This document shows positions 36 to 304 of a DNA stretch of 304 nucleotides, in pieces (within the stretch, counting starts at the first letter, position 1; the number at the start of each line of letters is the position of its first letter). Position numbers and translations under genes: made by a program. The notes under the pieces are model-generated. The model worked only from the letters and a program-made list of their open reading frames with translations, had not been told where the DNA came from and made no database searches. Where the stretch lies: the NCBI RefSeq assembly GCF_003334255.1, contig NZ_QOWU01000270.1. One strand, written 5' to 3'. The DNA is from Escherichia coli (GTDB lineage Bacteria > Pseudomonadota > Gammaproteobacteria > Enterobacterales > Enterobacteriaceae).

Positions 36-304
36 CCACTGCTGGATAAGCTGCGTGAGCAGTACGGGGTCGGACCGCTATGCAGCGAACTGCATATTGC
101 CCCGTCAACGTATTACCACTGTCAGCAACAGCGACATCATCCGGATAAACGCAGTGCCCGTGCGCAGCGCGATGACTGGCTGAAGAAAGAGATACAGCGC
201 GTATACGATGAGAATCATCAGGTATACGGTGTGCGTAAAGTCTGGCGTCAGTTGTTACGGGAAGGAATCAGAGTGGCCAGATGCACTGTGGCACGTCTCA
301 TGGC
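30..304 (+). CDS. 5' part of IS3-family orfB (DDE transposase catalytic subunit; N-terminal linker and HTH_21-like region only), continuing beyond the window
   Basis: Uninterrupted open frame from ATG at 30-32 (second in-frame ATG at 33-35) to the window end: 91 complete codons, checked codon by codon. This frame is also open upstream to position 3, consistent with entry by -1 frameshift from orfA. The DDE catalytic residues would lie downstream of this window. Confidence 0.9.
   Translation, partial: MMPLLDKLREQYGVGPLCSELHIAPSTYYHCQQQRHHPDKRSARAQRDDWLKKEIQRVYDENHQVYGVRKVWRQLLREGIRVARCTVARLM

Follow-up and report, generated by a model that had tools for sequence, protein, structure and literature searches.

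What is the function, if any, of a short perfect hairpin within the coding sequence of a bacterial transposase? The question is raised by a 304-nt stretch of Escherichia coli DNA (RefSeq assembly GCF_003334255.1, contig NZ_QOWU01000270.1), referred to below as the window, in which TATGCAG (79-85) is the exact reverse complement of CTGCATA (90-96), the two arms being separated by the tetraloop CGAA (86-89). The original prediction, made from the sequence of the window, described this 7-bp hairpin exactly as we read it. It placed the hairpin in the 5′ part of an IS3-family orfB, considered it only mildly unexpected, set aside a role in frameshifting because of its distance from an A run, and proposed mRNA stability or local ribosome pausing as candidate roles, suggesting an alignment of homologues and a comparison of folding energy with codon-shuffled controls as checks.

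Both checks are reported here, together with searches of RNA and protein family models. The results indicate, with a probability that we put at about 0.9, that the hairpin forms the upper (apical) helix of stem-loop 2 (SL2) in the apical loop-internal loop (ALIL) pseudoknot, the stimulator of programmed -1 frameshifting in IS51-group elements of the IS3 family.

Results

The hairpin and its expectation by chance

The stem formed by 79-85 and 90-96 is halted by a C78 x U97 mismatch, below which G77-U98 and C76-G99 can pair. Folded in a 100-nt context, the 7-bp stem has an ensemble probability of 0.987, and the energy of the 28-nt local fold (-8.8 kcal/mol, z = -3.2) was equalled by 2 of 200 shuffles; the fold of the whole window is unremarkable (z = -0.59). 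At least one perfect 7-bp hairpin with a loop of 3-8 nt was present in 8.9% of dinucleotide-preserving shuffles of the 304-nt window (n = 5000), a frequency in keeping with the earlier estimate that such a stem is only mildly unexpected; the accompanying view that chance is a plausible origin is contradicted by what homologues show, namely conservation and covariation of this helix (see below).

Coding constraint was addressed by synonymous recoding of the GVGPLCSELHIAP peptide, which produced a perfect hairpin of at least 7 bp in only 1.7-2.7% of 5000 recodings. The comparison with codon-shuffled controls gave a similar picture, the energy of native SL2 (65-104; -16.4 kcal/mol) falling in the lowest 1-3% of synonymous recodings. 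Taken from the window only, the evidence for the hairpin is borderline to moderately significant; that it is not a product of chance follows from the Rfam match and the comparative data.

An ALIL pseudoknot spans the end of orfA and the start of orfB

Rfam family RF01497 (ALIL, the apical loop-internal loop pseudoknot; curated gathering threshold, 50 bits) was the one strong hit of the Rfam search and matches positions 1-104 of the window with 97.0 bits (E = 3.8e-26), and the match is incomplete only at its 5′ end, where it is cut by the window edge. In an E. coli copy that is 99.7% identical (L001, 1188-1304), the score rises to 118.1 bits and the match covers model positions 1-117 of 117. 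The seven reported pairs correspond to the '<<<<<<<____>>>>>>>' block of the RF01497 structure line, which is the apical part of the second stem-loop, and the upper domain as a whole (76-99) corresponds to model positions 89-112. RefSeq places an 'AL1L pseudoknot' feature over exactly this stretch in 99.7%-identical E. coli copies, on a CDS named 'IS3 family transposase, programmed frameshift', and our search found a match in 3597 of 5426 complete E. coli genomes. The hairpin is ordinary, because it is part of a described, curated and routinely annotated element. The ALIL feature is already known, having reportedly been described for IS3411 by Mazauric, Licznar, Prere, Canal and Fayet (J Biol Chem 2008).

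The protein-coding context is equally well defined. OrfB scores 313.8 bits against the NCBIfam IS3 transposase model NF033516 (cut-off, 160 bits), aligning to profile positions 95-369, and OrfA covers positions 1-86, which bears out the original placement of the hairpin in the 5′ part of an IS3-family orfB. Close relatives are annotated as 'IS3-like element IS1203 family transposase', and the host element is of the IS629/IS3411/IS1203 type, within the IS51 group of the IS3 family. IS3411 and IS1203 are isoforms of IS629 (PMC3271280), and it is on IS3411 that the ALIL pseudoknot was defined (PMC5009743). IS3 proper, with its A_AAG slip site, was ruled out by the flank TAT TTT GCG AAG and by the IS629-type OrfA.

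The components of the pseudoknot are listed here in window coordinates, with the source of each assignment.

-6 to -2, + strand, outside the window (L001 1194-1198): slip motif U_UUU_G, read from the 99.7%-identical copy
1..2, + strand: final two positions of the GCGAA spacer (5 nt) that separates the slip motif from the first stem-loop (SL1), from the flank of the 99.7%-identical copy
3..19, + strand: SL1, with stem GGCGG (3-7)/CCGCC (15-19) and apical loop AGUUCGA (8-14), from the Rfam structure line
9..14, + strand: SL1 loop GUUCGA, which pairs with UCGGAC (70-75) to form the pseudoknot helix; 6 pairs, from Rfam and homologues
25..35, + strand: A6 run (25-30), orfA stop TGA (31-33) and overlapping orfB ATGs (30-32, 33-35), from the sequence and the OrfA and OrfB translations
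65..69, + strand: 5′ arm CGGGG of the SL2 basal stem, partner of 100-104, from pairing in homologues and RNAalifold
70..75, + strand: SL2 internal (receptor) loop UCGGAC, partner of the SL1 apical loop, from Rfam and homologues
76..99, + strand: SL2 upper domain, with C76-G99, G77-U98, C78 x U97, the stem 79-85/90-96 and the CGAA loop, from Rfam and homologues
100..104, + strand: 3′ arm CCCCG of the SL2 basal stem, from Rfam, homologues and RNAalifold

The kissing duplex formed by 9-14 and 70-75 has a predicted energy of -6.4 kcal/mol. SL1 and SL2 are separated by a spacer of 45 nt (20-64), which lies within the published range of 44-104 nt (PMC5009743), and SL2 has the architecture of an ALIL element: a basal stem, an internal loop on the 5′ side, and an upper helix closed by a small loop. 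Three registers compete in predictions of lower SL2, namely that of Rfam (65-69/100-104 plus 76-77/98-99), 71-73/97-99 and 71-73/102-104; the Rfam register is favoured because pair 77-98 covaries (G-C, G-U, A-U, C-G). Positions 5-18 and 65-78 form a direct repeat (CGGAGTTCGACCGC and CGGGGTCGGACCGC, 79% identical), which is explained by the palindrome TCGA in the kissing sequences, a feature that makes loop and receptor alike.

Slip site and reading frames

In the orfA frame, the flank of the 99.7%-identical copy reads GCT TAT TTT GCG / AAG GCG, and U_UUU_G ends 5 nt before SL1. All 28 homologues checked have T_TTY at this distance from SL1 and in the X_XXY frame position; in the same 28, the 0 (orfA) frame stops 9-15 nt past SL1 and the -1 frame stays open through SL2. 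The motif conserved at the slip site is T_TTY, which in the window's element reads U_UUU_G, and not the A run. Two copies on Armatimonadetes contigs (L049 and L051) have TTGT in place of the TTTT/TTTC slip motif (alignment A1, columns 5-8), and these copies may have lost the ability to frameshift.

The A6 run directly precedes ATGATG, in which the orfA stop (TGA, 31-33) and the first orfB start (ATG, 30-32) overlap. It is only in the enterobacterial IS629-type lineage that this run occurs, more distant ALIL-bearing relatives having none; in some copies (L045, L123 and L124) the substitution A30G shortens it and converts the first ATG to GTG.

The hairpin starts 48-49 nt past the A run and about 80 nt past U_UUU_G. 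The original figure of 49 nt was therefore arithmetically correct but was measured from the wrong slip site, the conserved one being U_UUU_G upstream. The conclusion that the hairpin is not a classical stimulator positioned a few nucleotides from the slip site stands, since slip-site-adjacent stimulators have their stem about 5-9 nt 3′ of the slippery motif and the hairpin at 79-96 lies far beyond that range. The decision to set a frameshift role aside does not stand, nor does the proposal of mRNA stability or local pausing: by the Rfam match and the RefSeq feature, the hairpin is an integral helix of the ALIL pseudoknot, which stimulates frameshifting.

Conservation and covariation of the helices

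The alignment of homologues suggested in the original prediction proved to be the appropriate check. Homologues were collected by scanning one genome per species for the SL1 17-mer GGCGGAGYTCGACCGCC alone, so that SL2 was left free to vary. The scan returned 120 loci, about 76 of them IS elements with SL2 as well; these belong to Proteobacteria, Actinobacteria, Chloroflexi, Armatimonadota and others, and the remainder are chance matches in GC-rich genes. Among loci L002-L121, the exact 17-mer is common to IS elements of Proteobacteria, Actinobacteria, Chloroflexi, Armatimonadota and Gemmatimonadota, a degree of nucleotide conservation that is unusually strict for a coding region. The main alignment consists of 41 distinct, ungapped 115-nt sequences, to which 4 enterobacterial relatives were added for the upper helix, giving 45. 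The SL1 stem is invariant in the 41 homologues by construction, these having been selected via the SL1 17-mer.

Across the 41 homologues, the whole structure is 93.8% paired, compared with at most 42% when partners are slid, and the kissing helix, the basal stem and the upper helix each show compensatory changes. The six pairs of the kissing helix are 99.6% paired, one of them being C-G in 38 of the 41 sequences and U-A in the lineage of the window. The SL2 basal stem is 99.5% paired, with compensatory changes at 2 pairs (G-C to A-U, C-G or U-G).

For the upper helix, the alignment of 45 homologues gives 84.9% pairing, compared with 24-37% for slid partners, and 4 pairs have changed on both sides. 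The covariation score of 0.213 (0.143 in shuffles) was reached by 0 of 500 shuffles. G-U pairs occupy 34 of 450 cells, which points to + strand RNA, as these would be C-A mismatches on the opposite strand; a minus-strand or DNA-level role is disfavoured by the same count. The individual pairs of the 7-bp stem are distributed as follows in the 45 sequences.

Pair 79-96: U-A 37, U-G 7
Pair 80-95: C-G 36, A-U 6 (window's lineage)
Pair 81-94: U-A 19, unpaired 25 (U x C mismatch)
Pair 82-93: G-C 42
Pair 83-92: C-G 39, U-G 2
Pair 84-91: A-U 28, G-U 3, C-G 1, unpaired 13
Pair 85-90: G-C 22, A-U 6, G-U 2, unpaired 15

About a third of homologues lack pairing at the top of the stem (84-91 and 85-90). 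The alignments show that a helix at this site is conserved and that its top is loose. The perfect 7 bp are specific to the lineage of the window, because the top pairs are often unpaired and 81-94 is mismatched in 25 of 45 sequences. The window's A80-U95 is C-G in most relatives, and the change brings amino-acid replacements with it (Ile to Leu, Pro to His), an observation that speaks for selection acting on the RNA. In Sodalis, A84-U91 is replaced by C-G, and in Edwardsiella the hairpin is kept in a shifted register.

Of 60 distinct upper segments from homologues, 58 fold as a hairpin, among them some that differ in length by whole codons. A mostly actinobacterial class (L004, L005, L006, L008, L027, L037, L059, L079-L081, L109 and L114) has an upper segment of 39 nt rather than 24 nt, the result of a 5-codon insertion, and forms a longer hairpin of 13-16 bp in the same place; in L074, a 3-codon deletion leaves an upper segment of 15 nt, which still forms 6 bp. 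In some copies the stem is disrupted by a synonymous change, Leu CTG to CTA at the equivalent of window position 92, giving a C x A mismatch in mid-stem in Escherichia albertii (L045, 337-451) and in E. coli ATCC 43896 (L123); these CTA copies gain a G-U pair at 78-97. The SL1-SL2 spacer is longer in some loci (63 nt in L016, L076, L103 and L106, 73 nt in L112 and 71 nt in L113), and in L112 and L113 the increase is due to GGGGGGACGTCCAC-like sequence duplicated in tandem immediately ahead of SL2.

Structure prediction programs gave a less uniform picture. On the 41 sequences, RNAalifold found SL1 and the basal stem of SL2; in place of the upper helix it preferred to pair columns 82-84 with 108-110. 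For this reason, pair counts were taken from the named structure and compared with slid and shuffled controls. The protein accounts for part of the sequence conservation, two Pro-Ile pairs being encoded as CCG ATC, which contains the palindrome CGATCG. In a pseudoknot-free partition function computed for 1287 synonymous variants, the receptor loop pairs elsewhere in essentially all, and in the pseudoknot-free model with 100-nt context the Rfam basal stem is not favoured in the wild type and lower SL2 is ambiguous. These calculations, made to see whether the hairpin keeps the receptor loop accessible, lent no support to a scaffolding role.

Discussion

Alternative explanations for the hairpin

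Features of the coding sequence could, in principle, account for the hairpin as a by-product of coding constraint and chance, the OrfB motif G-V-E/G-P-I/L-C-x-x-L-x-I-A-P and codon usage generating it without any RNA function. Such a hairpin does appear in 9% of window shuffles, the two CCG ATC (Pro-Ile) pairs, with their palindrome CGATCG, supply the lower half of the helix in most relatives, the top pairs are poorly conserved, and RNAalifold does not choose the helix. This explanation is nonetheless very unlikely in our judgement: compensatory double changes occur at 4 pairs, some of them with amino-acid replacements; pairing reaches 85%, against 24-37% for slid partners; the hairpin survives both the 5-codon insertion and the 3-codon deletion; only about 2% of synonymous recodings yield a perfect stem of at least 7 bp; and the helix belongs to a curated covariance model, against which the window scores 97 bits.

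We give similarly little credence to the originally proposed orfB element that would act autonomously, on mRNA stability or pausing, independently of frameshifting. In the homologues collected, the hairpin is always situated above a receptor loop and a basal stem in a fixed geometry, and no terminator-like or RNase-related features were seen; although the stem is very stable in the predicted ensemble (0.987) and lies inside a coding region, its co-occurrence with SL1, a complementary loop and T_TTY is accounted for by ALIL. An additional influence on decay or elongation of the transposase message is conceivable. The third alternative keeps the frameshift but moves it, so that the hairpin or SL2 would stimulate slippage not at U_UUU_G but at the A run (A_AAA_U, 27-31) beside the orfA stop. 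This lineage does have an A run with an overlapping ATGA, and Chen and Hu (2006) reportedly found both TTTTG and AAAAT to be -1 signals in IS629, with the A run as the secondary signal. However, SL2 starts 34 nt and the hairpin 48 nt past the A run, as against an acting range of 5-9 nt; by the time a ribosome stands at the A run it has melted SL1, and no pseudoknot can then exist; and distant ALIL-bearing relatives without an A run still keep the hairpin. Slippage at the A run is thus an extremely improbable role for it.

Proposed role of the upper helix

As the upper helix of ALIL SL2, which we consider it to be, the hairpin would contribute to frameshifting indirectly. A ribosome translating orfA would reach U_UUU_G, upstream of the window, with SL1 (3-19) lying 5 nt ahead, at the mRNA entry channel. 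SL1 is small, and its apical loop (9-14) would pair with the SL2 internal loop (70-75), 45 nt further on, to produce a three-helix, kissing-type pseudoknot that resists unwinding. Such resistance would favour slippage of tRNA-Phe from UUU to the overlapping -1 UUU, yielding the OrfAB transposase fusion. The hairpin at 79-96 would close the receptor loop on its distal side, presenting a defined internal loop between two stackable helices; in its absence, the receptor would be part of a floppy 30-nt hairpin loop. We infer from this arrangement that the upper helix may serve as a scaffold.

The loop-loop contact at the centre of this proposal has been studied in related elements. Pairing between the apical loop of SL1 and an internal loop of SL2, 44-104 nt in the 3′ direction, is described for IS3411 and no fewer than 27 further IS elements (PMC5009743), and IS51-group elements depend on it for -1 frameshifting (PMC4737148). 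Stimulation of -1 frameshifting in vivo, with dependence on the loop-loop interaction, has been reported for IS3411, and SL2 can act partly in trans (PMC5009743, PMC4737148). The upper helix is a perfect 7 bp in the IS629/IS3411 lineage and an interrupted helix of 4+5 bp in most relatives. In this lineage, which has also acquired the A6 run, the tightened helix might conceivably tune the ratio of two alternative frameshift products, or of independently initiated OrfB, beyond serving as a passive scaffold, but we hold this to be a very unlikely speculation.

Comparison with known systems

The ALIL element of IS3411 has the same SL1 and loop, 45-nt spacer, 5-bp basal stem, 6-nt receptor and host element as that of the window, and its upper helix is also the same (2 bp, a mismatch, and 7 bp with a tetraloop); nothing substantial differs. 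Compared with most members of RF01497, the lineage of the window has a U-A kissing pair, A-U instead of C-G at 80-95 and U-A instead of U x C at 81-94, and it is because of such pair variants that its upper stem is a perfect 7 bp.

Pairing between an apical loop and an internal or bulge loop likewise stimulates -1 frameshifting in luteoviruses, dianthoviruses and umbraviruses (BYDV, RCNMV and PEMV2; PMC5009743). In these viruses the internal loop is on the slip-adjacent stem and the apical loop is kilobases away, whereas here the order is reversed and the distance is 45 nt. The IS3 pseudoknot and the stem-loops of IS911 and dnaX have the same -1 frameshift outcome (OrfA-OrfB fusion), and their first helix likewise lies about 5 nt past the slip site. 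In contrast to classical H-type or simple hairpin stimulators, the hairpin at 79-96 adjoins no slip site and acts, if at all, via the tertiary contact made by SL2. The IS3411 pseudoknot has been listed as a natural bulge/internal-loop kissing (bKL) motif and is predicted to stack like the solved examples (PMC8457670). For such stacking the receptor loop must be flanked by two helices, the distal one being supplied by the hairpin at 79-96; stacking in IS3411 itself is a prediction only.

The hairpin consequently matters only as a correction: it is most probably no orphan but belongs, as one of the helices, to a recoding signal already described, and it leaves current understanding unchanged. 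The ALIL signal sets the amount of transposase, and hence the transposition, of IS629-type elements, which are abundant in E. coli O157:H7 and Shigella. The only modest addition is comparative: across phyla, compensatory changes maintain the upper helix, which also persists through whole-codon insertions and deletions.

Other repeats in the window

Positions 30-44 and 126-140 form an inverted repeat of 15 nt (80% complementary), which in the minimum free energy fold of the window encloses SL2 and covers the orfB starts. Pairing of the spacer with the region downstream of SL2 is not above that of shuffles in 28 homologues (median z -0.2; -1.16 in the lineage of the window), and this long-range repeat, which is not enriched in the 28 homologues, was treated as due to chance. 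Further into orfB, two tandem 21-nt direct repeats (189-209 and 210-230) are 71% identical, and a second perfect 7-bp inverted repeat, CGTATAC/GTATACG (200-206/222-228), with a 15-nt loop, is partly a consequence of this direct repeat.
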